This document shows, piece after piece, positions 21,758 through 45,217 of a stretch of DNA of 56,017 bases (position 1 is the stretch's first letter; each line of letters opens with the position of its first letter). The stretch is from Patescibacteria group bacterium. GTDB taxonomy: Bacteria; Patescibacteriota; Minisyncoccia; Phycocordibacterales; UBA12079. The stretch covers positions 1-56,017 of the forward strand of contig JAZDMO010000013.1 of the NCBI GenBank assembly GCA_043800905.1, written 5' to 3'. The translations under genes and the position numbers were made by a program. The notes beneath the pieces are model-generated. The model saw only the letters and a list, made by a program, of their open reading frames with translations. It searched no databases and was not told where the DNA came from.

Positions 21758-21829
21758 GGCCTGGTGGCGAAGTAGAAACGCTTCGATCTGCAAAATCGAC
21801 ATGCGCGGGTGCGATTCCCGCCCAGGCCT
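21758..21829 (+). tRNA. tRNA-Cys(GCA)
   Basis: GGCCTGG...CCAGGCC-T73; anticodon loop CTGCAAA in stem TCGAT/ATCGA. Confidence 0.93.
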
Positions 21830-22015
21830 CAAAAATAATGAAATAAACATGTTAGTGTTTATGAAATATATTTTGTCGTCTGGAGGGAATCGCACGGTGA
21901 TAGGAAAAGTGCTAAACGCACTTTTCCGAGCCGCGACCAACAGCACTTAGTAGATTTCGAGCGAAGCGAAGAAATATACTTAGTGACTGTGGGTCGATTC
22001 CCGCCCAGGCCTCCA
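21830..22015 (+). mobile_element. tRNA-Cys-linked structured element (inverted plus direct copy of the tRNA 3' end)
   Basis: Inverted copy 21878-21895; direct copy CGATTCCCGCCCAGGCCTCCA 21995-22015; GAGCGAAGCGAA-looped hairpin between them. Confidence 0.7.
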
Positions 22016-22037
22016 CAAAGTATCAATTATTATGTAG

Positions 22038-22186
22038 CCTGCCTGCCGGTAGGCAGGTAAGTACCAAATATATACAATGGGCGACAGCTTCGCTGTCGCC
22101 CGTCATTGCGAGGAATAATTTTTTGTTTTCCACCATTCGCCAACTGGCGAAGACAGATTAAACAAAAAATTATGACATGGCAATCT
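22038..22186. repeat. REP-like palindrome cluster
   Basis: CCTGCCTGCCGGTAGGCAGG; GGCGACAGCTTCGCTGTCGCC; GTCATTGCGAGG...TGGCAATCT. Confidence 0.8.
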
Positions 22187-22251
22187 AAAAAAACTACTTT
22201 TTATTAGAGCTAAATAATAAAAAACACGGCTCAATTGAGCCGTATTTTTAA

Positions 22252-22410
22252 TTATTTCTTAGTTTCTTTGTGAACAGTATGTTTTTTACACCATTTACAA
22301 TATTTCTTGATTTCAATCTTATCAACTACCAACTTTTTATTTTTACTTGACCAGTAATTGATTCTTTTACAATCCTGACAGGCCAATTTTATTAAGCTAT
22401 CTTGTGACAT
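22252..22410 (-). CDS. rpmG: 50S ribosomal protein L33 (Zn-binding form); not in ORF track
   Basis: [52 protein letters not shown]. Confidence 0.96.
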
Positions 22411-22563
22411 AATATTTTTATATTTAAAGTATGCGTGGAATTATATATTAAAATTCAAATTAAATCAACAATTGGTAATAAGTCTTAGTATTTACATTAG
22501 CAAAAAAGTATAGTATAAACTGCCATAGTAAAGTTCACTTACATTCAATTTAAAGGAGGTTTT

Positions 22564-23502
22564 ATGCAAGAAAATCTAGAGGTAATTGTTTTAGAAGGAA
22601 AACATACTCGCCCTGTTCCAACAAATACCGAAAAAAATTTTAAAGAACTACTAAGGAAATCTGGAATAAATCAAGGATCTTTCAAATTTGTTTTAGGAAA
22701 ACAAATTAGAGGAGCCAGTGGCACCGATTCAATCGTTGTTCATAACATTGATACATCTACAGGGTCAATTTTGATTAAAACAAAAATTGACGGCAAAAAA
22801 GATCAAAGATTTGAGGCTTTTTTGACACTGCCTGAAAATTTCAAAAATAAAGGGTTTGTCTTTTTTGAAATGCTTAAGAAAGGAGCAGAAAATATGAATC
22901 ATCCACCGATAGATTTAAAGCAAGATACTGATAAAGAAAAAAGTTTGTTGACACCCCATAACGATCGGAGTTTATTTCCACCACCTCAGAAAAAGTCTCG
23001 AGGGATCGGATTTAAACATTTTATTGAAGACGATGAATCCATCTATATTTTTTGGCTCGAAATCAAGAAATTATTTGAAAAAGACAATCCTCCAACCAGA
23101 AATGATCTTATCGATAATTTTTTGATTGATTTTGGAAGTAAAGCTGGGTGTTATCGCTTTGTTTCTGATTTGATTAAAAAAAAGATATTATCAGAAAATG
23201 ATTCTACTAAACGAACTTCTTTTTTGAGTATTGGGGAAAAACTTTCAATTATCATCAATAAACAAGATGAAAAAAGAAAAACCGAGAGAGTTTTCTCAAA
23301 AGATTCTGATAGTGTGTTTGAAAAAATCAGAAATCTAAAAACTCTTTGTTCTCAAAAAGAATTACTTGAAAAAGAAATACAAGAACAAAATCTTTTAATA
23401 GAAAAGGCTCGAAAAAAAATAGAGGGTCTCCAAAAACAAATTACTCCGGAAATGATGGAATCCGAAGAAAAACTAAAAGCAATAGAAACGCTTTTAGCAT
23501 AA
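22564..23502 (+). CDS. hypothetical protein, possible central winged helix and C-terminal coiled coil (orphan)
   Basis: AAAGGAGGT RBS; terminator at 23507-23545. Confidence 0.8.
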   Translation: MQENLEVIVLEGKHTRPVPTNTEKNFKELLRKSGINQGSFKFVLGKQIRGASGTDSIVVHNIDTSTGSILIKTKIDGKKDQRFEAFLTLPENFKNKGFVFFEMLKKGAENMNHPPIDLKQDTDKEKSLLTPHNDRSLFPPPQKKSRGIGFKHFIEDDESIYIFWLEIKKLFEKDNPPTRNDLIDNFLIDFGSKAGCYRFVSDLIKKKILSENDSTKRTSFLSIGEKLSIIINKQDEKRKTERVFSKDSDSVFEKIRNLKTLCSQKELLEKEIQEQNLLIEKARKKIEGLQKQITPEMMESEEKLKAIETLLA

Positions 23503-23583
23503 AAACAACCTCTGTGTGGATTTTTAATTCGCACAGAGGTTTTTATTAATTTGATTTTGAAAAATTTTAATCAACTACACTTG

Positions 23584-23656
23584 TCCGCCCGGAAGGGATC
23601 GAACCTTCGACCTGCCGATTAAGAGTCGGATGCTCTACCAGCTGAGCTACGGGCGG
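23584..23656 (-). tRNA. tRNA-Lys(CTT)
   Basis: CCGCCCG-TAGCTCAGCTGGTAGAGC; anticodon loop CTCTTAA; GGTTCGATCCC; 3' CGGGCGG-A. Confidence 0.93.
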
Positions 23657-23750
23657 ATATACTGGTAAAATAAAAAAGAAAATATCCTTTTCTTTTCCAC
23701 TTCAAAAAAACATACTCCACAAATAATTCTTATTTGTTCTGTTGTTTTTG

Positions 23751-23833
23751 TGCCTAGGGCGGGAGTCGAACCCGCATCCGCATAACGGACAACATTTTAA
23801 GTGTTGCGTGTATACCTATTCCACCACCTAGGC
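23751..23833 (-). tRNA. tRNA-Leu(TAA)
   Basis: GCCTAGG...CCTAGGC-A; anticodon arm CAACA-CTTAAAA-TGTTG; long variable arm. Confidence 0.94.
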
Positions 23834-23873
23834 ATTTTTATTTTATTATCAAATTTGGTTCTTGACCCATCAG

Positions 23874-23922
23874 TGTGTGTACACCAACTTGCCTACCGGC
23901 AGGCAGGTTCCACCACCTAGGC
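23874..23922 (-). pseudogene. duplicated tRNA-Leu 5' end, interrupted by a CCTGCCTGCCGG repeat
   Basis: TTCCACCACCTAGGC repeated at 23908-23922; GTGTGTACACC continues the match on the other side of the inserted repeat. Confidence 0.7.
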
Positions 23923-23968
23923 ATTATTAATTAATATATTATCTTATTTTTCTAATAATTCAATCATC

Positions 23969-24136
23969 TTCCCTGCGGGTCCACGAGGACTTGTCTTGAC
24001 GGTTTCTAAATATAATTCTTCGCTATCGCTCGAATTATATGAAGAACCGCGTGACACAGCTCGTTGTTGCTCGTAAACTCGCAACATACTCCGCTGTTCA
24101 AGTCCACACAAAAGCTATCGCTTTCTGTGTTCCCTG
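23969..24136 (-). mobile_element. tRNA-Trp-linked structured element
   Basis: Direct repeat TTCCCTGCGGGTCCACGAGGACTTG at 23969-23993; inverted T-arm GTTCAAGTCC at 24096-24105; GAGCGATAGCGAA-looped hairpin. Confidence 0.7.
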
Positions 24137-24208
24137 CGGGTCCACGAGGACTTGAACCTCGGACGACGGTTTTGGAGACCGTTGTTTTACCAACTAAACT
24201 ATAGACCC
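24137..24208 (-). tRNA. tRNA-Trp(CCA)
   Basis: GGGTCTA...TGGACCC-G; anticodon arm ACGGT-CTCCAAA-ACCGT. Confidence 0.93.
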
Positions 24209-24260
24209 AATCTATAGAACTTCTGTATTTTAACAAATTTTTTACAAAAATTCTATAAAA

Positions 24261-25886
24261 TTATATAAACAATTTAACCAAACGGATATCTTCCCATGAA
24301 ATATTATCAGGTAAAACTTTTTTTATCGGGCTTAATTTATCCCCACCGATTTCTTTCCAAGCTTCTAAAATTCTTTCAAAATCATTTATATCCTGTTTTA
24401 AATAAGAAAAATTCACTCGCCCCTTTCCTCTTTCTTCATTCAATTTCTCTAAATGAGAAATAATTGTAGAAACCGCTAAATTTCTTTCACGAGCAATATC
24501 CTCAAGCATCATTTCTTGAGCAATCATTTCTTTGGTAATTTCATAAGTACTGACTCTTTCGTCATAATCTTCTTCGACTTTTGATACTTTTAAAAATTTG
24601 TCCTGAATTTCTTTTTTTTCTTTATCTTTTAATTTTGAAATTGATTCAACTACTTTTTCTGATTGAATTTGTAATTCATTATCAAATTCATAAATTTCAT
24701 CATTAATTCTTAAAGCCATGTCGTTTAAACCTTTCAAAAATAAACCTTCTAAAGACCTTACTCGAGAAAGGGCCACATAACCCATTCCTTCCACGAAAGA
24801 CTTAGAAAGGTCAATTTCAGCCAAATCAAGGCTCATTCCTTGACTCTTGTGAACTGTTATAGCCCAAGCCAAACGCAGTGGAATTTGAGTAATTTTAGCC
24901 TTTATAACCCCGTCTTCCTCAATATGCCATGGTTCTTCTTTTACCAAAATCCTTAATCCTTTGTAGGTTTCAACCACAGGTAACCCTCCTTCAAAAGAAA
25001 TAATTTTTCCTAGAGTTCCATTAACATAACCTTTTTCAAAATTATTTTTTACAAACATTACTGAAGCTCCTTCTTTTAGACGCAAAGTCTCTGGAGCCAA
25101 ACAAGATTTTTTTAAACTTTCTAATATTTTTTTATTTCCCATTTCTTTCATCCTAAAAATTTTAGAAGAAACTCCAATTTTATCTAATTCTTGTAAATTA
25201 AAACTATCCACATCTTGATTATGGGTAAATAATTTTGTAAATACAAAATCTTTATCATTTTTATTTTCTCGATTTTTTAATTTTTCTAAAATTTCTTGGT
25301 CTACTTCTTTTCTTCTTATTGCATTTAAAATTTCAATCAGACTATCATTATCTTCCTGACGATATTGCTCTTCTAAATAACAAACATGCAAATCCATATC
25401 TTGCCAAATATTAGAATGGTAAGCAAAACGAATTTTTTCATTGAAACGATTAATTGGTGGTAATTGAAAAAAATCACCACACAAAACAACCTGTAGACCT
25501 CCAAAAGGTAAATCTTCATCTAAAAAAGAACGACAAATATTATCGACTGCATCTAATTGGTGGGCGTGAAGCATTGAGATTTCATCTATAATTAAAACGC
25601 GTGCAAATTTAAATCTTTTTTTCAAATAGGCTTTTTTGAGTAATTTTTCTAAATCATGATGATTGATTTGATCTTTTATTCCTAAACCAGACCAAGAGTG
25701 AATTGTCACTCCATTCATATGAGTAGCAGCAATTCCCGTGGAAGCTGTTTTTCCTACCGGCACTCTATGGGAATTTAAAATATCAATATATTGATTGAGT
25801 AAATATGTTTTACCCGATCCGGCCGGACCAGTCAAAAAAACATTTTTTCCCATTTTTAAAATTTCTAAAGCTTCGGACTGTTTCAT
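24261..25886 (-). CDS. PIF1-family (SF1B) DNA helicase with C-terminal HTH
   Basis: GPAGSGKT, IIDEISM, GDFFQLPP, QIPLRLAWAITVHKSQGMSL, YVALSR; C-terminal IARERNLAVSTIISHL. Confidence 0.93.
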   Translation of the reverse strand: MKQSEALEILKMGKNVFLTGPAGSGKTYLLNQYIDILNSHRVPVGKTASTGIAATHMNGVTIHSWSGLGIKDQINHHDLEKLLKKAYLKKRFKFARVLIIDEISMLHAHQLDAVDNICRSFLDEDLPFGGLQVVLCGDFFQLPPINRFNEKIRFAYHSNIWQDMDLHVCYLEEQYRQEDNDSLIEILNAIRRKEVDQEILEKLKNRENKNDKDFVFTKLFTHNQDVDSFNLQELDKIGVSSKIFRMKEMGNKKILESLKKSCLAPETLRLKEGASVMFVKNNFEKGYVNGTLGKIISFEGGLPVVETYKGLRILVKEEPWHIEEDGVIKAKITQIPLRLAWAITVHKSQGMSLDLAEIDLSKSFVEGMGYVALSRVRSLEGLFLKGLNDMALRINDEIYEFDNELQIQSEKVVESISKLKDKEKKEIQDKFLKVSKVEEDYDERVSTYEITKEMIAQEMMLEDIARERNLAVSTIISHLEKLNEERGKGRVNFSYLKQDINDFERILEAWKEIGGDKLSPIKKVLPDNISWEDIRLVKLFI

Positions 25887-25975
25887 ATTCCAAATATTAT
25901 ATCATAAAAAAACCAGCCCTGAGCTTGTCTTAAGCTCAGGGCTATTTTCTGGTTAATCTAAAATTGTTGAGGTGT

Positions 25976-26176
25976 TTACCTCATAATTTTTTGGTTTGCG
26001 GAGACAAAATTATCTCCAAGTTTTCTTACCACTTCACGAAATTTGGTTTGAGCTTCTTTTTTGGAAGCCCCACAAGAACAGGTGTTATCCTTGGGTCTCA
26101 TCTGACGACCACAGTTCCCGCAAATTGTAATCTTTTTGAAACTTCGTTTCAAACTTCTTAACTGACTAGGCATCAA
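25976..26176 (-). CDS. small Zn-ribbon protein (orphan)
   Basis: CGNCG...CSCG; AAAGGAGGT RBS; terminator at 25914-25945. Confidence 0.7.
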   Translation of the reverse strand: MMPSQLRSLKRSFKKITICGNCGRQMRPKDNTCSCGASKKEAQTKFREVVRKLGDNFVSANQKIMR

Positions 26177-26265
26177 ACAAACCTCCTTTTTAAATTATAA
26201 AAAATCAAAACCCGAGTTAGTTAAAAAACTTCTCGGGTTTTCGAAACAATAATAAAATCAAAACG

Positions 26266-26469
26266 TTATATGGATAAGCGATGTCCATGAAAACCCATAT
26301 CATTCTCTATAGGGATACCTACAGAAAAGGTTTTATCTAAAATACCGTCATATACGGCTCCATGTTTACAAAGAGACATACCACAAACAGGGCATTTCTT
26401 TTTTTCTACAACGTCTTCATCGATTTCACTTGTTCCTAAAAACGTACAGCAACCAGTGCAGGTTATCAT
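26266..26469 (-). CDS. small Cys-rich protein (orphan)
   Basis: CTGCC...CPVCG; AAGGAAGGT RBS; TTGACG-16-TAATAT promoter; hairpin at 26207-26242. Confidence 0.7.
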   Translation of the reverse strand: MITCTGCCTFLGTSEIDEDVVEKKKCPVCGMSLCKHGAVYDGILDKTFSVGIPIENDMGFHGHRLSI

Positions 26470-26575
26470 GTTCCACCTTCCTTAAAATTTAAGTTATTCA
26501 AAATAACCAGATTACTTCTGAATATACATATTACATCTTTTTTAGATTTCGTCAAAGATAATTTGTTTATAAATA

Positions 26576-26732
26576 AAAACCACTGGAACTGAATTGTCCC
26601 AGTGGATAAAAAACGATTGTTAAGAGTCTTCCTCCTTTCTATCTACTCTACATTTAAAGAGATAGTTTCGATAGTGGCTGTCTTTTGTAGCCCTGCTTTG
26701 TTCTTCTGGACAGACAAAACACTCTTTCAATC
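26576..26732 (-). ncRNA. candidate stand-alone structured RNA
   Basis: TTGACA(26759-26764)-18-TATAAA; 5' GATTGAAAGAGT pairs with 3' ACTCTTAACAATC; terminator CCACTGGGA...TTCCAGTGG-T5; no ORF on this strand. Confidence 0.45.
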
Positions 26733-26856
26733 TTTTTATATTTTTATTATTTACTATTTGTCAATAGTTTTAAAAAGAATCGCCAATCGTAATCTCAACA
26801 GAGCTTACGATTGGCGATTCTATGTCTCTATAAATCAATCTATTAATCAACTAAAC

Positions 26857-28632
26857 CTACATTTTCTCAACAGTTTCAATTCCCAATAAACTCAAACCAT
26901 TTTTCAAAACCTGAGCAGTTCCCTGTGCCAAAGCTAACCTTAATTGTTTTTCTTCCTTTGAGGCCTCTAAAACAGGACAATTGGCATAAAAAGCATTAAA
27001 TCTTTGAGCTAACTCATATAGATAATTACACATCAAATGTGGAGCAATTTCAGTTCCCGCCCTAAAAGCATATTGAGGATATCTTGCCAACCATTTCAAT
27101 AATTTTTCTTCATATTCCCCTATCTCCAAACCATTTGGTAACCCCGTTACCAAATGGTTAGATTTTTGGAGAATGGCTTGAGCTCGCACATAGGCATATA
27201 AAATATAAGCTCCTGAATAGCCTTCAAAATCAGCAAACTTTTTCGGATCATAATTTACATTTTTACTAAAATCATAAGAAAGTACTAAAAATTTCAAACC
27301 AGCTAGAGCCACTACCCGAGTTATCTCTTCTTTATCTTTTTCCGAATAATCTTTTATTTCAGCAATTTTAGTTTTAGACACTTCCAAAGCCTCTTCTAAA
27401 ATATCAGTTCCTTTAATATTTTTTCCACTACGTGAACTAGTCTTTTTCCCGTCCATCAAAAGCCACCCAAAAGATTCATGAAAATATTTATTTTCAAATT
27501 TAGAATCCAGAGTTTCTAAAATTTTTACTACTGCTTTAAAATGATCGTCCTGTTCTACTCCAGTTAAAGTCAAATTTAAAAACAAATTAGGATAATCTCT
27601 AAGCTTCTGAAAACCCAAAGCTAAATCCTTAGCCAAATAAGTTGGATTATTTTCACTAGTTTCAACCACCCAAGTAGCCAAACCTTCTTTTTCTCCATCA
27701 TAAATAATTGCTCCTTGGCTTTTGGTGAAAAGATTTCCAGTATTTTTTTCTACAATTTCTTTAGCTTCTTTAAAGACTTCGGATTCTGGATATTGTTTAT
27801 CATAAATCACCCCCAATTCTTTAAATAACTTTTCTTGATGTATTAAGCTCCAAATCTTAATTTTTTTATAAAGCTGAGTCGCTTCATTATCAACTTTTTT
27901 ATAAATGTCAGTATTGATTTTTCGAATCGCTTCTTCATTATCATCAAAATTTTCTGTGGCAAAAACATAAGCATCTGCGATATATTCCATTCTTTTGTGA
28001 GCATCCCAATTTTCAAAATCTTTTGGAACACCTCTTTGCATCAATCCCCAAGTGCTTTTAGCTGTGTGCATTCCAATATCTCCATAATAATTTGTTTTAA
28101 CTACATCAAACCCGAGATTTTCTAAAAGATTACACACAGAAAGCCCAGAAATCGCTCCTTTAATATGCCCAACCGTAAAAGCCTTGTGAGTATTAGGTTG
28201 CCCAAATTCCACCATAATTTGTTTTTTATTTTTTAAATCTCTATTATATTTTCCATAATCATCTTTTTTTTCCAGAATTTTTTTTAGAGAATTAATATAA
28301 AATTCTTCTTTTAAAATAAAATTAATATATCCAGAGCTTAATGGTTTAATGTCTTTTATTTCTGGTAAATCAATTTTTTTAGCAATTTCCTCTCCAACTT
28401 CCAATTTATCTTTACTAAGTAATCCAGAAACAACAGATATATTCACAGCATAATTTCCATGTGATTCATCTTTTGGATAAATAATTAAAATAGGTTTAGT
28501 ATTTTGTATGTTATTTTCTTTTAAGTAATCATCACAAATTATCCGAATTTTATCTGTTAGTTTTACTTTAAATAAGTCTTCCTCAAGAAGACAATTATTT
28601 TCTAATATTCCTTTTAATTTTATATCTGACAT
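26857..28632 (-). CDS. argS: arginine--tRNA ligase
   Basis: VEFGQPNTHKAFTVGH, NYYGDIG, KTSSRSG, FEGYSGAYILYAYVR, FNAFY, LGIETVEKM. Confidence 0.96.
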   Translation of the reverse strand: MSDIKLKGILENNCLLEEDLFKVKLTDKIRIICDDYLKENNIQNTKPILIIYPKDESHGNYAVNISVVSGLLSKDKLEVGEEIAKKIDLPEIKDIKPLSSGYINFILKEEFYINSLKKILEKKDDYGKYNRDLKNKKQIMVEFGQPNTHKAFTVGHIKGAISGLSVCNLLENLGFDVVKTNYYGDIGMHTAKSTWGLMQRGVPKDFENWDAHKRMEYIADAYVFATENFDDNEEAIRKINTDIYKKVDNEATQLYKKIKIWSLIHQEKLFKELGVIYDKQYPESEVFKEAKEIVEKNTGNLFTKSQGAIIYDGEKEGLATWVVETSENNPTYLAKDLALGFQKLRDYPNLFLNLTLTGVEQDDHFKAVVKILETLDSKFENKYFHESFGWLLMDGKKTSSRSGKNIKGTDILEEALEVSKTKIAEIKDYSEKDKEEITRVVALAGLKFLVLSYDFSKNVNYDPKKFADFEGYSGAYILYAYVRAQAILQKSNHLVTGLPNGLEIGEYEEKLLKWLARYPQYAFRAGTEIAPHLMCNYLYELAQRFNAFYANCPVLEASKEEKQLRLALAQGTAQVLKNGLSLLGIETVEKM

Positions 28633-28722
28633 ATTGACTTTTTATTAATATATATATATCATATAATTATACATATGAAAAAGTACCTCTACTTGTTTTG
28701 TCCTGTAGCGGTACTTTTTCTT

Positions 28723-29208
28723 TTATATTCCTATTTTATTTTTTAAATTATTCATATAAACGATTTTATCTTTAGCAGTTTTCCTGAGCAAAAATGAGCA
28801 AGTTTTAACATGAGGGCTTAAAACTATTTTTAATTTTTTATTACTATATAAATAATCAACTAGTGAATAAAAATCGCCATCACTTGAAACAATCACTGCT
28901 TTATCATAATCATTATATTTTAAAATTGCTTTCAAAACCAAATCTGCATCTATATTTCCTTTTGGATTTCCAGACTTATCTAGTAAAACAGGTTTAAATT
29001 TTAAAACAAAACCAGCTTTTTCTAACATCTCATACAAATTTTTCTTTTCATTAATATAACCGATAAAAATATATGCTTTTTTAACTTTATATTTTTCTTT
29101 TAAATATATTCTAAATTTATTCCAATCTAAATCCCAACCTAAACTCTTTATTCCTCTGTATATATTTTGACTGTCAATAAAAGCAAAATTTTTTTCTTTT
29201 AAAAACAT
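28723..29208 (-). CDS. NYN (LabA/DUF88) PIN-like domain protein
   Basis: AFIDSQN, KGNIDADLV, IVSSDGDF. Confidence 0.92.
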   Translation of the reverse strand: MFLKEKNFAFIDSQNIYRGIKSLGWDLDWNKFRIYLKEKYKVKKAYIFIGYINEKKNLYEMLEKAGFVLKFKPVLLDKSGNPKGNIDADLVLKAILKYNDYDKAVIVSSDGDFYSLVDYLYSNKKLKIVLSPHVKTCSFLLRKTAKDKIVYMNNLKNKIGI

Positions 29209-29239
29209 ATAGAATATAATAACATATTAAATAAATATT

Positions 29240-29524
29240 ATGAAAAAATTTCAAAGAACCATAGAGGATTTTGTTTGCGAAAATTGCGGAAAAAAGGTTG
29301 AAGGTAACGGTTATACTAATCACTGCCCTAATTGTCTATGGAGTAAACATGTGGATGTCAACCCCGGAGATAGAGCTTCTGATTGTAATGGTCTAATGGA
29401 ACCAATTTCTCAAGAACTTAAAAATGGAGAACAAATCATTGTTCATCAATGTATTAAATGCGGACATCAAAAGAAAAACAAAATTGCCCAAGAAGATAAT
29501 TTTGAAAAAATCTTAGAACTTTAA
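29240..29524 (+). CDS. RNHCP-domain protein
   Basis: FVCENCG, YTNHCPNCLWSKHVD..PGDRA. Confidence 0.92.
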   Translation: MKKFQRTIEDFVCENCGKKVEGNGYTNHCPNCLWSKHVDVNPGDRASDCNGLMEPISQELKNGEQIIVHQCIKCGHQKKNKIAQEDNFEKILEL

Positions 29525-29724
29525 TTCTTTAACTGTTTAACTTAATCAAGTTTAAATAAAAAATACATTTGTACACTGAACTGACGACCGTTGAGTTAGT
29601 GTACATATTTTCTTTTTTATATTGACAAAATTTTCTCGGATGCTATTCTAAAACTTAGAATTAAATAGTTCGTTGCGAGGCAGTTTTTGATTAACTGTTT
29701 TTAACTTTTTAAAAGGAGGAAGCT

Positions 29725-29973
29725 GTGAACAACTCGATCTCTCAATTAAGAAGAAAGATTTTGAAAGAGACGAAAGCTCGGGCAACAAAGGAAGCAGATT
29801 TGGTTTCTTTTGTTAATAAAGTTGAAGAAACTTTCAAAAGAATGACTGAGGAAGCGCAAAAGCTTCAGGCTGGGGTTCTCCCAAACGATTTTCCCACAAA
29901 ATCATTGGCAGAAAATTTGACCGCCTCTTTGGCTAGAGGGGCCGACGATTTCCGCCGCAACTGTCTTCAATAA
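29725..29973 (+). CDS. hypothetical protein (orphan)
   Basis: GTG start after AAAGGAGG; TTGACA(29622)-16-TATTCT; hairpin at 30015-30045. Confidence 0.65.
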   Translation: MNNSISQLRRKILKETKARATKEADLVSFVNKVEETFKRMTEEAQKLQAGVLPNDFPTKSLAENLTASLARGADDFRRNCLQ

Positions 29974-30075
29974 ATAATTTTCTAAGGAATTTTAAAAATG
30001 AATTTTCATTTTAAAGGCCTCAAAATGCAAAGCGTTTTGGGGCCATTAATTTTTATGTTCAATGTCTAAAATTTT

Positions 30076-30822
30076 TTATTCAAAAAAAACAGTCAATTCC
30101 AAAGCGTTATCGTACTGAGGTAAACCAGAAGGGTTATCTTTTTTCAAAATTAAAGATCCTCTATTTTCTACTCCTTCAATTTTTTCAGGTTTTGTAAATT
30201 CTAAATTAGCTTTAAAAGGAACAAAGTCTTCTACCATCCAATCACCCTGAGATGTCGCATAACCTTCAGCGATAATCAAACCATCCCAATTAGTTAAAAT
30301 TACCGGAAAAGAACCCTCAAAATACCAATTTCCCCTAGCTTTTCCTTCTAAAATTAGAGGATTAGAAATTTTTTGTCCGTCTTTAATATTTTCTAAAATA
30401 ATTAAATCTTTTAAACTTTCTTGTGAATTTAAATTTTCTGTAAAGACTTGCTCACTTACTTTATCTCGACACTGTCTTGGATAAGATTCCATTACTGAAT
30501 TTCCTGCTTCTACACAAGAAATAAAATCTTTTACACTTGAATCACTCTCATTTTGTTGGGAAAAAGAACAAAAAGGAACACATTGTAAAGTGCACATAAC
30601 AGCCTCTTTTTCATGACGACAAGCAGAACCACATTCATTAAAAATTCCCCCATTGATATCACACCAATTTTGACTAATTCCTTCACATTCTTCTTGTTCA
30701 AAAATCCAAGTCCCATTATTTTGAATACAAGCAGAAACTATACTTTTACTGGAATTTTCTTTAAATAAATAAACCCCGCCTAAAATTAAAACAATAATGA
30801 TTAAATAGATTATTTTTTTCAT
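30076..30822 (-). CDS. secreted Cys-rich protein with Gmad2 Ig-like domain
   Basis: Signal anchor; FISCVEAGNSVMESYPRQC; GKARGNWYFEGSFPV...KDNPSGLP. Confidence 0.85.
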   Translation of the reverse strand: MKKIIYLIIIVLILGGVYLFKENSSKSIVSACIQNNGTWIFEQEECEGISQNWCDINGGIFNECGSACRHEKEAVMCTLQCVPFCSFSQQNESDSSVKDFISCVEAGNSVMESYPRQCRDKVSEQVFTENLNSQESLKDLIILENIKDGQKISNPLILEGKARGNWYFEGSFPVILTNWDGLIIAEGYATSQGDWMVEDFVPFKANLEFTKPEKIEGVENRGSLILKKDNPSGLPQYDNALELTVFFE

Positions 30823-30832
30823 AACAAATTAT

Positions 30833-31168
30833 TTAAATTATTAACGGTAAATTTTCTTTTTTCCAAGATAACAATCCCCCCTCCAAATCTTTTACATTCG
30901 TAAAACTTAAAGTTTTCAAAACACTATAAAGAATTTGGCTTCTAGAACCACTTCGACAATAAACAACAATTGGTTCATTTTTTTTATTTGAAATCCCAAT
31001 TTTATTTAAATCAGCTAAAAAATTTTCTGAAAGATTTAATAAAACAGCTCCTTTTATATACCCTCTTTTAAATTCATCTGGAGTCCTAACATCTAAAAGA
31101 ACAAAATTTTCTTTATTTTGTATTCTCTTATATAAATCTTTAGCTGAAATAAAATCGTTACTATCCAT
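30833..31168 (-). CDS. rhodanese-like domain protein
   Basis: LLDVRTPDEF, VYCRSGSRS, LEGGLLSW. Confidence 0.93.
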   Translation of the reverse strand: MDSNDFISAKDLYKRIQNKENFVLLDVRTPDEFKRGYIKGAVLLNLSENFLADLNKIGISNKKNEPIVVYCRSGSRSQILYSVLKTLSFTNVKDLEGGLLSWKKENLPLII

Positions 31169-31281
31169 AGAACAATTATAGCACATAATTTGTTTTTTAC
31201 TTGATATCCCTCAAAGTCCTTATAAAAGGTTTTTCTCATTTTTATTTTACCCATATAAAAATTAGTGTTATAATTAGTTTT

Positions 31282-32226
31282 ATGTTTAAACAAATCAAAA
31301 AAAGTATTTTAAATATTCCACCACTTTATTGGATAATAATAGGGTTTTTTGTATTATTTTTAATCTCAAATATTTTATTAGTTTTAGCTGGTAAAAATAA
31401 CCTAGACAAAATAAACCAAAAGCTTCAAAATCTTGATAATCAGGTTTTAAGTTTAAACGGAAATTTAGCTTCAACTACCGCAATTTTACAACAAAGCATT
31501 AATCAAACCCATCTAGATTTATCTTCAGCAATTGATATCGAAAAACAAAATGTGGGGAAAATCGAAAATCTTTTAGGAACTTACAAAGAAGAAGTTGGAA
31601 ATATTTCTGGAACTGTGAATGATTTAGAAAAACTGACAAAAACTGACCCTGAACTTCTTCAAAAATACTCAAAAGTATTTTTCTTAAATGAACATTATGC
31701 TCCCGCAAGACTAACTGAAATCCCTAACAGCTATGAATACAATGAAGATAAATATTCCAAAATTGATTCTCAAGTCTGGCCATATTTAGAAAATCTTTTA
31801 AAAGCTTCGATTGGTGATGGAGAAGAAATTTATATATATTCAGCCTATCGTTCTTTTGATGAACAAAGTGCTTTAAAAGATCAATATAAAGTAGTTTATG
31901 GGTCAGGAACAGCTAATCAGTTTTCTGCTGATCAAGGCTATTCAGAGCATCAATTAGGAACAACAGTTGATTTAATCACGACAGGCATAGGTGGAACTTT
32001 AGATGGTTTTGGCGAAACATCAGCTTATCAATGGCTTTTAAAAAATGCTTACAAGTATGGATTTGTGCTTTCTTATCCCGATAACAATAATTATTATATT
32101 TTTGAACCTTGGCATTGGCGTTTTGTGGGGGTTAAATTAGCTACTTATTTATACAATCAAGGTAAAAACTTTTATGATTTAGATCAACGCACTATTGATG
32201 AATACTTAGTTAATTTGTTTGATTAA
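31282..32226 (+). CDS. M15B (VanY-like) D-Ala-D-Ala carboxypeptidase
   Basis: SAYRS, SEHQLGTTVD, FEPWHWRFVG; TM plus coiled coil at the N-terminus; ATG 31282 follows TATAAT. Confidence 0.92.
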   Translation: MFKQIKKSILNIPPLYWIIIGFFVLFLISNILLVLAGKNNLDKINQKLQNLDNQVLSLNGNLASTTAILQQSINQTHLDLSSAIDIEKQNVGKIENLLGTYKEEVGNISGTVNDLEKLTKTDPELLQKYSKVFFLNEHYAPARLTEIPNSYEYNEDKYSKIDSQVWPYLENLLKASIGDGEEIYIYSAYRSFDEQSALKDQYKVVYGSGTANQFSADQGYSEHQLGTTVDLITTGIGGTLDGFGETSAYQWLLKNAYKYGFVLSYPDNNNYYIFEPWHWRFVGVKLATYLYNQGKNFYDLDQRTIDEYLVNLFD

Positions 32227-32286
32227 AAAAATATAAATAAAAAAACAGAGGTCAGCCTGTAAAACAGACTGACCTCTTTATCCTAA

Positions 32287-32538
32287 TCATAGAAGGTTTT
32301 GAGCTCTCTGGCGGAAAGCATCAAGTTCTCCTGACACTGATATAGAAGTAAATTGCTTTTGCTCTAGAAGTATTTGATTCCTTAAAGTCAAAAAATAAAC
32401 CTCCTCTTCTAAATTTTTTGCCCGATCTTCCAATTGATGGCATTTATTTCCAAGATTAGCGTTTATATTAACTACTTTCTGTAATAAAAGCTGTAAAGAG
32501 TAAACTTTCTCTTTTAACTTTTCTGTCATATCAGCCAT
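32287..32538 (-). CDS. hypothetical coiled-coil protein (orphan)
   Basis: GGGAGG RBS before ATG 32538; TTGACA near 32604; terminator at 32245-32278. Confidence 0.65.
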   Translation of the reverse strand: MADMTEKLKEKVYSLQLLLQKVVNINANLGNKCHQLEDRAKNLEEEVYFLTLRNQILLEQKQFTSISVSGELDAFRQRAQNLL

Positions 32539-32685
32539 AATCCTCCCAAGATTTAATTGTTTTATTTTTACGCTTCCGTTATTTAACCAAAATAATTCTG
32601 TATTGTCAATGCCAAAAGAAAATGGTATAATTGCCAATTAGAATTGTTCTCATAATTTTATAACTCTAATAAAGGAGAAAACACA

Positions 32686-33027
32686 ATGTTTTGCCCAAGA
32701 TGTGGTGGAGTTGCTAAAGAACTTTCTTCCGGGGGTTCTAACAAAAAGGCCTGTATTTATTGCGGAAAAGGCCTTTTTTGTAGAGATTCTTTTTCAGGAA
32801 AAATTGAAAAGAATAGTCTCCCCCACTTTAATCTTTTTAAAGCTTTATGGTTACGATTTCAATATAATCGTAATCCTAGAAACAAAAAACAAGGAAGAAT
32901 AAATCTGCAAGATTATAAAAGTTTTAGAAAGCAATTGGAAAAAAGTAACCGAAAAATAGCTAATGCTTTGAAAAACCGCAAAAAAATTCTTAAGGGATTT
33001 AAAAAAGAATTTCATCGTTACGCATAA
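32686..33027 (+). CDS. basic Zn-ribbon protein (orphan)
   Basis: CPRCG...CIYCG; AAAGGAG RBS; TTGTCA-17-TATAAT promoter; terminator at 33058-33083. Confidence 0.7.
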   Translation: MFCPRCGGVAKELSSGGSNKKACIYCGKGLFCRDSFSGKIEKNSLPHFNLFKALWLRFQYNRNPRNKKQGRINLQDYKSFRKQLEKSNRKIANALKNRKKILKGFKKEFHRYA

Positions 33028-33388
33028 ATACGTTTATTTTAATAGTTAGAAACAAAAACCACAGAAGCAATCCTGTGGTTTTATTATTTTGTTGCACTTA
33101 TTTTGTTTGCTATATGGAACGAAGTTGGAACTTTACTAAAAAACACAATTAAAGCATAGAGTAATATATCATACAGATTTGAACTTGCGATACTTGGCGA
33201 AGCAGAGATAAAATATCCTTATCTATAGGCTATTTTTTATAACCCCAACAAGACTTTTGGCTATGTCTGAATCTATTTACTTTATACAATATTTATTGTA
33301 TGTTAACTATTAGTTAAAGATAGATAATTTTAAATAAAGTACATTGAAATGAAAAAAACTTAATTAATTTCAAGAGGAGGAAACACAA

Positions 33389-34696
33389 ATGACTACCAGT
33401 AAAAAAAGTAGGCAGAAAGTTAAACCAGAAAAAGAAGATTTTTTTGAGCTTATTGTCAGTAATCCAAATCATGCATCACCTTTTTTGCAATTCAGCTGGT
33501 GTGTAAACAAAAAAGGTATCGAGTGTTTAAGAAAGGAGCAAGTACTTCATCCATTCCTATTGGTTGTTATTCTAAACAAAAAGGCTTATGGAGAAGAATG
33601 GGAGGACTATATTCGGCAACTCTATCCGCTTGACCGTGGTTTGGGCCATATCGAATTCAACCGCCCTGGTGAGTACAAAATACATGCTTCTGTCATCTGG
33701 ACTTTTAACTCGTCAAAAGGAAGACAACAAAAAGTCGAGGATGCTCGAAAAGAACTTTACAACAAGTACAAAGATATAAAAAGAGGAAAATATAGCTATA
33801 ACCTTCATGACGAAGAAACATATCGACCTGATTATCTGGAGCATAACACTCTTTCCTATCACGATAAAATTTCTGTGATTGTCGACAAAAATCTTTTTGC
33901 ACCTGAACCTTCAAATCGTATGAAGTGGTGGGTAAATATGCTTTGGGATTATAAGAAACCGAAAAATCAATGCGATTGGCGACGGCGTAAAATCATTGCT
34001 TTTTCTATTCAACCTTTGTTGGTTCTCATCTTTTTAATTATCAGAAGTATAATTGCGGTAGCTTGGGTAATTTTCCTGCTGTTTATCGGCTATTATCCAA
34101 ATAAAATCGGATGGAAAGCCGTTATTCACCCCTTTGATATGAATATCTGCGACATTGTTGACACCACGTACGATATCAAAAATGTTGATAACTACTGGTG
34201 GATTACTAATCCTGACCGAATCGAACGTTCAAAAGTTGAAAAAATACTTATGAGTCCAATTACGGGATATGGCTTGGTAATAGTTTTTTTAATTTTTGTT
34301 GAGTCCAACATTTTCCGTATGGCTACGCTTATCGGTTTTTTAGACTGGAATATCTTGCTCGCGTGCTTTATATTTGTAATTGTTGTGATGGCCACCAGTT
34401 TGCTTCTCTATAAAATATGTATACTCATCATTAACCGTTTCTTCAGTAAAAAACTGAAGCTACACGCCGAAGAACGCTTGAGGAGAAAACAGGAAGAGGA
34501 AACAAAAAGAAAAAGAAACGAACAAATGGCTTTTCAAAGCTCTCTTTCCTTTTTTTATGACCAGAGGTTAAAACCCTTGGCTTGTACCGAACGAACCCGC
34601 GAAGCTACTTTGACAAGTCTTCCTGAGACCCACCGCACCTTGCAACTACGGTTTATGGACTTGAAAGTTAAAGTTTGTAAACCATTTCGTGGATGA
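33389..34696 (+). CDS. hypothetical membrane protein (orphan)
   Basis: AGAGGAGG RBS; several hydrophobic segments; terminator at 34712-34740. Confidence 0.8.
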   Translation: MTTSKKSRQKVKPEKEDFFELIVSNPNHASPFLQFSWCVNKKGIECLRKEQVLHPFLLVVILNKKAYGEEWEDYIRQLYPLDRGLGHIEFNRPGEYKIHASVIWTFNSSKGRQQKVEDARKELYNKYKDIKRGKYSYNLHDEETYRPDYLEHNTLSYHDKISVIVDKNLFAPEPSNRMKWWVNMLWDYKKPKNQCDWRRRKIIAFSIQPLLVLIFLIIRSIIAVAWVIFLLFIGYYPNKIGWKAVIHPFDMNICDIVDTTYDIKNVDNYWWITNPDRIERSKVEKILMSPITGYGLVIVFLIFVESNIFRMATLIGFLDWNILLACFIFVIVVMATSLLLYKICILIINRFFSKKLKLHAEERLRRKQEEETKRKRNEQMAFQSSLSFFYDQRLKPLACTERTREATLTSLPETHRTLQLRFMDLKVKVCKPFRG

Positions 34697-34763
34697 ATTA
34701 TTTAAAACAAAAGGCTCAGTCGTTTTATGACTGAGCCTTTATTTTTTTTACTAAAAATTATAT

Positions 34764-34993
34764 AGGTTCGAATATCGTCTAATAGACAAACAAAATATAA
34801 ACACCAGAGCATTCACTCTGGTGTTTATATTTTGTATGTTGCCAGACTAGGATTCGAATCTTACAGATTCGGTGCAGCGTTTGGATATTTTGTTTCGTTA
34901 CACTCACAAAATATCTCAAACCGCTTTTCGAATCCTATCTGACAAAAGAAAAATAAAAAACCCAAGCTATAGCTCAGGTTTCTTTTTTCTTAG
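34764..34993 (-). mobile_element. tRNA-Gln-linked structured element (about 1.5 units)
   Basis: Inverted 3' end 34927-34945; direct copy GTTGCCAGACTAGGATTCGAA 34838-34858; second hairpin and degenerate inverted copy at about 34764-34787. Confidence 0.7.
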
Positions 34994-35064
34994 TTGCCAG
35001 ACTAGGATTCGAACCTAGATAACCAGCTCCAAAAGCTGATGTCCTACCATTAGACGATCTGGCA
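34994..35064 (-). tRNA. tRNA-Gln(TTG)
   Basis: TGCCAGA...TCTGGCA (U1-A72); anticodon loop TTTTGGA; GGTTCGAATCC. Confidence 0.93.
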
Positions 35065-44932: not shown

Positions 44933-45217
44933 AAATATGTATTATGTAATATGTATCAAGTATTATGTATTTTAAAAGAACGGTGTCCGCTATATTCTAA
45001 CTGGGTTAGACGATAGGACTGTTTTAAAATTTTTATTTTTTAATTTTGTAAATAAAAGCACTTCGTCTTATATAAACTCCTCGGCTCAAGAATATGAATT
45101 AGTTAAAAATTTATAAAGTAAAAAATTGCGAAACAATTTTTCCTAAATAACTAAAACCTAAACAACTAATAAACTAAATCATTATACTAATTTTAAATTT
45201 AAAATCAAAAGAAAAAT

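Follow-up and report, generated by a model that had tools for sequence, protein, structure and literature searches.

Protein-less modules behind tRNA genes of a Patescibacteria genome as putative miniature insertion elements of the tRNA T-loop

Transfer RNA (tRNA) genes are classical landing sites for mobile DNA, and in the accepted picture the element that lands there is required to carry an integrase. The window analyzed here, a stretch of 56,017 nucleotides (nt) that represents the whole contig C18 of a Patescibacteria genome (labeled G000), contains three tRNA genes (tRNA-Cys, tRNA-Trp, and tRNA-Gln), each followed by a gene-less segment holding both an inverted and a direct copy of the end of its own tRNA. 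What are these segments, which we refer to as modules, and how did they come to lie behind tRNA genes? We propose, with a probability of roughly 0.55, that they are miniature insertion elements that encode no protein, are mobilized in trans and target the tRNA T-loop. The genome comprises 646,679 bases in 22 contigs (31% G+C, 96.85% complete) and has 33 tRNA genes, the positions of which were obtained with ARAGORN and checked with Rfam. The 3' end given by ARAGORN is 1 nt longer than that of Rfam, and junction positions were corrected for this difference. Copies of tRNAs in the flanks were found by a k-mer comparison of every tRNA with the neighboring DNA.

An earlier note on this DNA had located the three tRNAs and had read a common layout behind them: a hairpin, an inverted copy, a long hairpin and a direct copy of the 3' end. 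ARAGORN and Rfam agree on the tRNAs, and the layout is confirmed by sequence reading and k-mer comparison. The gene for tRNA-Cys(GCA) occupies positions 21758..21830 of the plus strand, its last ~18 nt (from C56) forming the element-proximal copy of the repeat. A spacer hairpin (21843..21862, by sequence reading) separates it from the left, inverted arm (21880..21895), which is complementary to tRNA positions ~53-69 apart from one irregularity where the T-stem meets the acceptor. The arm is followed by scaffold A (21896..21994), which consists of a junction stem, hairpin 1 and a long hairpin 2 with a GAGCGAAGCGAA loop and ends with GGGT, mimicking the 5' strand of the T-stem, and by the displaced direct copy of the tRNA-Cys 3' end (21995..22013, 19 nt exact).

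The other two modules lie on the minus strand. Behind tRNA-Trp(CCA) (24136..24208), we read a spacer hairpin (24106..24129), the inverted arm GGACTTGAAC (24096..24105), complementing positions 53-62, and scaffold B (23994..24095), which is common to the Val-1 and Lys-ttt modules on contig C19. The displaced copy of the tRNA-Trp 3' end (23975..23993) is exact over 19 nt, and the identity runs a few nt beyond the tRNA. The tRNA-Gln(TTG) gene (34993..35064) is separated from its module by a terminator-like hairpin with a T run (34955..34984). The arm (34927..34941, 15 nt) skips one nucleotide at position 65, the short scaffold (34862..34926) forms one long hairpin with the loop GAGTGTAACGAA, and the displaced copy (34838..34858) is exact over 21 nt and is followed by what looks like the original terminator of tRNA-Gln (34790-34835). 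Measured to the end of the direct copy, the gene-less segments behind tRNA-Cys, tRNA-Trp, and tRNA-Gln are 183, 162, and 155 nt long, with exact inverted runs (T-loop plus 3' strand of the T-stem) of 11, 10, and 11 nt, respectively. Between arm and direct copy there are one or two further hairpins, a long one having a GAGCGAAGCGAA-type loop, and the related loop strings quoted for the three hairpins are present in the sequence. The hairpin described beside the tRNA is present as well, with a refinement: it is terminator-like at tRNA-Gln, while elsewhere a hairpin splits the inverted copy itself, in other copies at the acceptor/T-stem boundary. The statement that the window encodes no recombinase also held, in that PF00589, PF01548, PF07282, PF01797, and PF00239 had no match on C18.

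The layout is not confined to the window. Nine of the 33 tRNA genes of G000 bear ten modules in total, with further modules behind tRNA-Leu-tag, Lys-ttt, Arg-gcg, and Val-tac on other contigs, the last of these having two in tandem. Since the layout recurs at six further tRNAs of this genome and the fold covaries over 54 copies (see below), it cannot be attributed to chance. The copies of scaffold A at tRNA-Cys and tRNA-Ala are 96% identical over 99 nt. At tRNA-Ala, the scaffold lies 915 nt downstream of the tRNA, its arms fit tRNA-Ala, and the 0.9 kb in between carry one gene for a 185-aa NT5C-like protein. At tRNA-Ser-tga, the scaffold is found 4.1 kb downstream, again with matching arms, and four genes are enclosed (a weak DUF5677-like match, a sodium:solute symporter, a membrane protein and a methyltransferase). 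Gene-carrying versions, which the earlier note had suggested looking for, thus exist; in these copies the genes lie between tRNA and scaffold, and the scaffold remains beside the displaced tRNA end. Islands at tRNA-Ser in the related genome G063 carry 4.9 and 2.2 kb of cargo. No recombinase was found in six cargo regions that were annotated or partly annotated, including those at tRNA-Ala and tRNA-Ser-tga and the G063 islands.

In the tRNA-Ser-tga island (G000 contig C19, 24300-28900), short repeats based on the palindrome GTGCTAGCAC and a subsequent GAAG lie between all cargo genes, as do tRNA-end-like strings ending in CCCGCA. There are hints that this island was assembled from several units.

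To compare the orthologous tRNA-Cys site, a DNA search was done in 40 relatives and the locus was recovered in 11, which together with G000 make up the following tally. Scaffold A is present in G000 and G008, an unrelated scaffold C in G005 and G003, and C followed by A in tandem in G002. The site is empty in G004, G012, G010, G014, and G017, is occupied by other repeats in G006, and cannot be followed in G001, where the contig ends. Presence/absence variation between relatives is thus found at one and the same site, which may be filled, doubly filled or empty. The insertion is exact, as the sequence past the displaced copy in G005 matches the sequence directly after the tRNA in the empty site of G012. 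In G003, the T-arm of tRNA-Cys differs and the arms of the module differ accordingly. A conserved gene starting with MDKKKKWTEKDL follows tRNA-Cys in G004, G012, and G005 (loci L011, L012, and L006), with or without a module in between.

The spread of the modules was followed with a covariance model (R1), built from nine copies of scaffold A and applied to 151 genomes across the order, and with a strict motif for hairpin 2, which was run on species-representative genomes, metagenomes and viral contigs. Model R1 found modules in 55 of the 151 genomes, with one to 20 per bearing genome; the scaffold of the Gln module had no match to it at E ≤ 0.001. A cognate tRNA is present in the locus for 45 of 50 model hits, covering 25 anticodon types. 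Among the extracted loci, scaffold A was found at Cys, Ala, Ser, Trp (four times), Pro, Asn, and Arg-tcg, and scaffold B at Trp, Val, Lys-ttt, Arg-tct, Lys-ctt, Gln, Gly-gcc, and Phe. Scaffolds A, B, and C each stand behind many tRNA species with the arms re-matched every time, and hairpin modules are mixed and matched between copies. The strict motif yielded 37 loci in species-representative genomes, labeled as Saccharibacteria (14), other Patescibacteria groups (20) and Elusimicrobiaceae (one, on a 4-kb contig) or unlabeled (two); a tRNA lies within the 300-nt flank at 27 of them. In metagenomes, it yielded 60 modules on 58 loci, 39 of which have a cognate tRNA. Two metagenome contigs, L187 (1090-1630) and L190, have a pair of genes upstream of the module that by eye are RelB-like and YafQ/RelE-like, together with a large serine recombinase, and a second tRNA-end-like fragment just before the module.

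The junctions point to the T-loop as the site of exchange. Over 45 modules, the direct repeat begins at C56 in 21, the largest class, and one nt earlier in a further six. The arm reaches the complement of G53 in 26 of the 45 and position 54 or beyond in 37. Where the tRNA reads GTTC, the right junction reads GGTC, GGAC, GAAC or GACC, and the end of the scaffold (GGGT or GGGA) retains a T-arm-like dyad. Nucleotides of the T-loop that are unpaired in the module's own fold are nonetheless copied in the arm: it reads GCAC at all six tRNA-Cys modules with the T-loop TGCGATT and GGAC at one tRNA-Gly-ccc with GTCC, locus L148 being the one counter-example. The tRNA and the displaced copy differ at 57 sites within positions 56-65; with some rows offset by 1-nt indels, the arm agrees with the tRNA at 54, with the displaced copy at one and with neither at two. 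The real partner of the arm is therefore the tRNA-proximal copy, as expected if the functional fold is that of an excised unit with joined ends. Departures of the arm from the tRNA occur chiefly at positions 63-65, where a nucleotide is skipped or a hairpin is interposed.

In all single-sequence folds, a closing stem formed by the arm with the direct copy encloses two hairpins. RNAalifold predicted 48 pairs from nine copies, 20 of them with compensatory changes. When 54 copies were aligned by fitting to the model, which favors structure, 92.7% of the pairing cells could pair, as compared to 67.7% after shuffling and no more than 43.5% after sliding the partners, and both-side changes were seen in 46 of the 48 pairs. 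On the tRNA-sense strand, the non-Watson-Crick cells comprise 136 G.U versus 43 A.C (74 versus 25 in the scaffold alone). As G.U far exceeds A.C, the fold is favored on one strand, either as RNA or as single-stranded DNA. The junction branches opposite positions 56/57 in the T-loop of the T-arm that is imitated. The quasi-palindrome of hairpin 2 (ACTTA ... TTAGTAAC) hardly varies, includes a mismatch and a bulged A, and looks like a site for protein binding. When Rfam 15 was run on the window, the tRNAs alone reached the gathering score and the modules had no match even at E ≤ 1; at locus L018, weak sub-threshold matches (E ≤ 1) to unrelated Rfam families overlap or adjoin the module.

How might such a unit move? 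In the mechanism that we propose, the mobile unit would span from about tRNA position 56 to the scaffold end and would contain a replacement tRNA 3' end, a spacer hairpin (possibly serving as a terminator in some copies), optional cargo genes, an arm of 10-17 nt complementary to the T-loop and the 3' strand of the T-stem, and the conserved scaffold of ~100 nt with its junction stem and two hairpins. Insertion would restore the tRNA and shift the old 3' end downstream, where it would decay. The active form would most likely be a folded single strand of tRNA-sense polarity, in which the ends are joined and the arm is paired, across this joint, with the tRNA end that the element itself carries. 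The resulting three-way junction would resemble the target's T-arm in its continuous strand, and exchange with the tRNA gene would take place at about position 55/56 by an enzyme supplied in trans. The folded single-stranded DNA site envisaged in the earlier note is borne out, indirectly, with respect to the single-strand fold (by the covariation and the 136 versus 43 cells); that it is DNA rather than RNA, that the unit forms a circle and which enzyme acts on it are matters that we only infer. The broader proposal of a non-autonomous, tRNA-targeting family acted on in trans agrees with the variation between relatives, the recurrence, and the cargo versions devoid of a recombinase.

A tyrosine recombinase, be it the lone enzyme of Xer type or an integrase brought in transiently by a phage or plasmid, is our tentative candidate for the trans-acting enzyme. 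Two Xer-like tyrosine recombinases are encoded in G000, with sizes of 303 and 275 aa; the gene for the latter adjoins fmt, and its product scores 215 bits against TIGR02249 (cut-off 265), matched in two stretches. IntI was not found in G000, nor in the module-rich genomes, which have a single Xer-like gene each. One tyrosine recombinase is present in each of the module-rich genomes G063, G009, G072, and G079, and likewise in most of the 151 genomes. Its apparent proximity to modules in G130, G122, G036, and G063 was rejected as a lead, being due to a conserved neighborhood beside tRNA-Arg-tcg. A Y1/HUH (RAYT-like) single-strand transposase is somewhat less likely, and strand exchange that is driven by homology and resolved by junction enzymes of the host is less likely again. 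Y1 genes occur in 41 of the 55 genomes with modules and in 50 of the 96 without (Fisher p = 0.009). No match to the IS110 (PF01548) and TnpB families was found in G000, and no reverse transcriptase was found in G000 or in three of the four module-rich genomes searched. Somewhat short of an even chance remains that the copies are no longer mobile or that the element is something else.

G000 also has one gene for a large serine recombinase, which ends against the 3' end of tRNA-Asn (C14, 18843-22463). The two genes after it resemble, by eye, those of a restriction enzyme and of a methyltransferase of the Dam type, and the three probably make up a small mobile island for restriction-modification. 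No tRNA-Asn end repeat was found within 13 kb, and the recombinase was rejected as a candidate for the trans-acting enzyme.

Rather doubtful, but the most consequential version of the proposal, is that the inverted arm acts as a guide, giving a nucleic-acid-guided, re-targetable insertion without a dedicated site-specific recombinase. In the excised and folded single strand, the element's own tRNA-end copy would hold the arm while the nucleotides complementary to G53-T54-T55 stay free. These three could serve as a toehold on the target T-loop, from which the arm would swap onto the tRNA gene. The resulting four-way junction would have its crossover fixed at 55/56, where homology ends, and host junction-resolving or Xer-type enzymes together with replication would finish the insertion.

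Several observations weigh against trans-mobilized elements, or against particular parts of that reading. The re-matching of the arm on change of tRNA is left unexplained by it. The empty sites could stem from deletion between the direct repeats and not from a lack of insertion. The alignment behind the pairing statistics leans toward structure, as said above, and strand-biased deamination could contribute to the G.U excess. In G063, modules are found on both strands within 4 kb, hence there is no strict tie to one replication strand. As for the enzymes, the earlier note had suggested looking for a co-occurring recombinase: Xer-type genes are indeed present, and none is linked to modules. The lone tyrosine recombinase sits in a conserved housekeeping neighborhood at all four loci examined. 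Genomes G019, G067, and G134, bearing ten, eight, and six modules, respectively, have no Y1 match, and both Y1 genes of G000 are flanked by hairpins unrelated to the modules. Large serine recombinases show no association either (34 of 55 module-bearing versus 60 of 96 module-free genomes).

Three other explanations were considered. First, the modules may be passive scars, i.e., attachment-site arms left behind by integrase-bearing prophages or islands after internal deletion, with the scaffold as an inactive former P arm. Islands inserted by tyrosine integrases are classically recognized by direct repeats of the tRNA 3' end and a crossover in the region of the T-stem. The Islander account counts 1836 islands with a site in the T-stem region and 3760 with a 3' fragment (PMC4383910). 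In G000, repeats that start at the anticodon loop and copies of tRNA 5' halves also look like ordinary scars. Against this, the scaffold is conserved over 54 copies, and from class to class, as a fold that covaries; a single genome has it at two different tRNAs with 96% identity, and up to 20 tRNAs per genome are occupied. An integrase-bearing parent was not found in viral contigs, phages or plasmids, and we consider this explanation improbable. Motifs and blastn were the only means used to look for a matching autonomous element that shares the att sites. Two scaffold motifs gave 68 loci in viral contigs, which were all rejected as chance matches because none has a T-loop-like arm or a tRNA and none matches R1. 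The strict hairpin-2 motif had no match in viral contigs, and neither did blastn against phage and plasmid collections. Full-text literature searches (excluding supplements) retrieved no description of these modules.

Second, the modules could be structured RNA genes that are transcribed with or after the tRNA and act as RNA, their variability at the DNA level being secondary. The closing helix would mimic the acceptor/T-arm helix, so that tRNA-processing enzymes could trim the transcript, and the arm might bind the tRNA. This would fit a fold that is specific to the tRNA-sense strand and rich in G.U pairs, the lack of a terminator between tRNA and module in G063, the apparent own terminator of the tRNA that the displaced copy retains, and a promoter-like match ending 8 nt ahead of the Cys arm. 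Yet the count of such matches (61) does not stand out from that in shuffles (54.5), a terminator-like hairpin with a T run separates tRNA-Gln from its arm, and a hairpin with a T run is readable behind several other tRNAs of G000. Moreover, the modules match no Rfam family, and the arm follows the tRNA, not a supposed downstream pairing partner. An RNA gene would also leave the tandem copies, the cargo and the empty sites in close relatives unaccounted for, which makes it, in our opinion, quite improbable.

Third, and very improbably, the modules might be by-products of replication errors: template switching at the near-palindromic T-loop (TTCGAA) would produce the inverted and direct copies, and scaffolds would pass between such sites by gene conversion, without any dedicated means of moving. 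Quasi-palindrome correction templated by a neighboring tRNA would yield an exact inverted arm. The arm is indeed exact with respect to the tRNA beside it, and this extends to nucleotides 53-55, which have no partner in the module's own fold; moreover, hairpin modules are shuffled between copies. The conserved covarying scaffold with its spread across classes, the exact insertion at the single position C56, and the cargo-bearing versions are left unaccounted for.

Other repeats were found near tRNA genes. A 20-bp palindrome, CCTGCCTGCCGGCAGGCAGG, interrupts partial tRNA copies beside tRNA genes within the D-loop or T-loop of the copy, namely 5' pieces of Leu-taa and Leu-caa and the 3' half of Ile-gat (window positions 23888-23922; G000 contig C14, 47873-47930 and 51756-51815). 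About 50 copies of it are present genome-wide, also inside the Lys-ttt and Leu-tag modules. A second class of repeats comprises decayed copies of tRNA 5' halves, 70-220 nt upstream of eight tRNAs and in tandem at Glu-ttc and Ile-tat. It also includes 3' tRNA copies, beginning at the anticodon loop for Ile-gat and at position 11 for Gly-gcc, and a 40-bp insert without scaffold at Ile-tat, where the repeat likewise starts at C56. Repeats of this second class lie in the window upstream of tRNA-Glu-ctc (44933-45020) and elsewhere in G000 on C4 (29625-29720), C8 (17655-17835), C21 (9540-9761), C22 (11671-11765), and C19 (23741-23845). A conserved 170-nt block in the window (22244-22424), 75-90% identical across the family, was rejected as an RNA element as it corresponds to rpmG (22252-22410, minus strand), encoding ribosomal protein L33 (52 aa, four cysteines).

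To our knowledge, few mobile elements have been described in bacteria of the Candidate Phyla Radiation. Here, elements of 130-190 nt occupy as many as almost half of the tRNA genes of a genome, and most of the genomes concerned have a housekeeping Xer-type recombinase only; the elements keep a conserved folded core, have two short segments re-matched to the host tRNA and can carry genes. If the arm selects its target by base pairing, the modules would represent a very small, naturally re-targetable insertion module and a route of gene flow in these bacteria. Even under a conservative reading, they account for many annotated ‘tRNA fragments’ and point to small islands that vary.

The modules share single features with several known systems, namely CTX-type elements, integron attC sites and the IS200/IS605-REP group, none of which they clearly match in its defining features. 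They come close to the islands integrated in tRNA genes by tyrosine integrases. Modules and islands have in common an intact tRNA with a displaced 3' fragment in the same orientation, a crossover in the T-loop, a restored gene, tandem arrays and possible cargo (PMC4383910). The T-loop crossover is apparent in our modules from the repeat start at C56 and the T-arm-like dyad at the scaffold end. The modules differ in having no integrase in six cargo regions, in genomes with mostly a housekeeping Xer only, in a size down to ~130 nt, in the additional inverted target copy and covarying three-way-junction scaffold, and in reaching up to 20 copies at different tRNAs of one 0.8-Mb genome. Integrase-less derivatives of tRNA islands are known as cis-mobilizable elements (CIMEs).

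Integrative mobile elements exploiting Xer (IMEX) of the CTX type have a folded single-stranded attP that is used by XerCD at dif. Like them, the modules encode no recombinase, contain an inverted repeat through which one strand can fold into a target-like duplex, and have a host Xer in every genome examined. The comparison with CTX made in the earlier note breaks down on the defining point, since the target of the modules is the tRNA T-loop and not dif; furthermore, the module stem holds the right half of the T-arm dyad only, and there are no phage genes. Integron attC sites resemble the modules in an imperfect inverted repeat that closes a variable structured center, in a strand-specific fold, and in units of gene plus site arrayed in tandem behind a fixed entry site. 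Unlike in integrons, there is no IntI, the arms copy the target and have no R/L boxes, and the conserved part is the center instead of the arms.

With IS200/IS605 and REP/RAYT systems, the modules share strand-specific hairpins near one end (hairpin 2 being a quasi-palindrome with a mismatch and a bulge), a short hairpin-adjacent sequence that pairs with the target, and hosts in which Y1 genes are common. They differ in carrying a replacement gene end and a pairing segment of 10-17 nt versus 4 nt, in lacking an adjacent Y1 gene and in being abundant in some genomes from which Y1 is missing. The bridge and seek RNAs of IS110/IS1111 elements, finally, are reminiscent of the modules as a ~130-nt structured non-coding segment matching the target on both strands; in contrast, the PF01548 search of G000 returned no DEDD recombinase. 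The two systems meet on the metagenome contig L174 (1857 nt), where an IS110-family insertion (41-1400, with a 371-aa open reading frame containing PF01548 and PF02371) sits exactly between the module arm (...GGATTCGA) and the scaffold start (ACGGCGGAG). The 3' non-coding part of this insertion holds a segment similar to GGATTCGA, which is what a seek/bridge-RNA guide should contain, and the insertion site together with this segment indicates that IS110 elements target the module junction.

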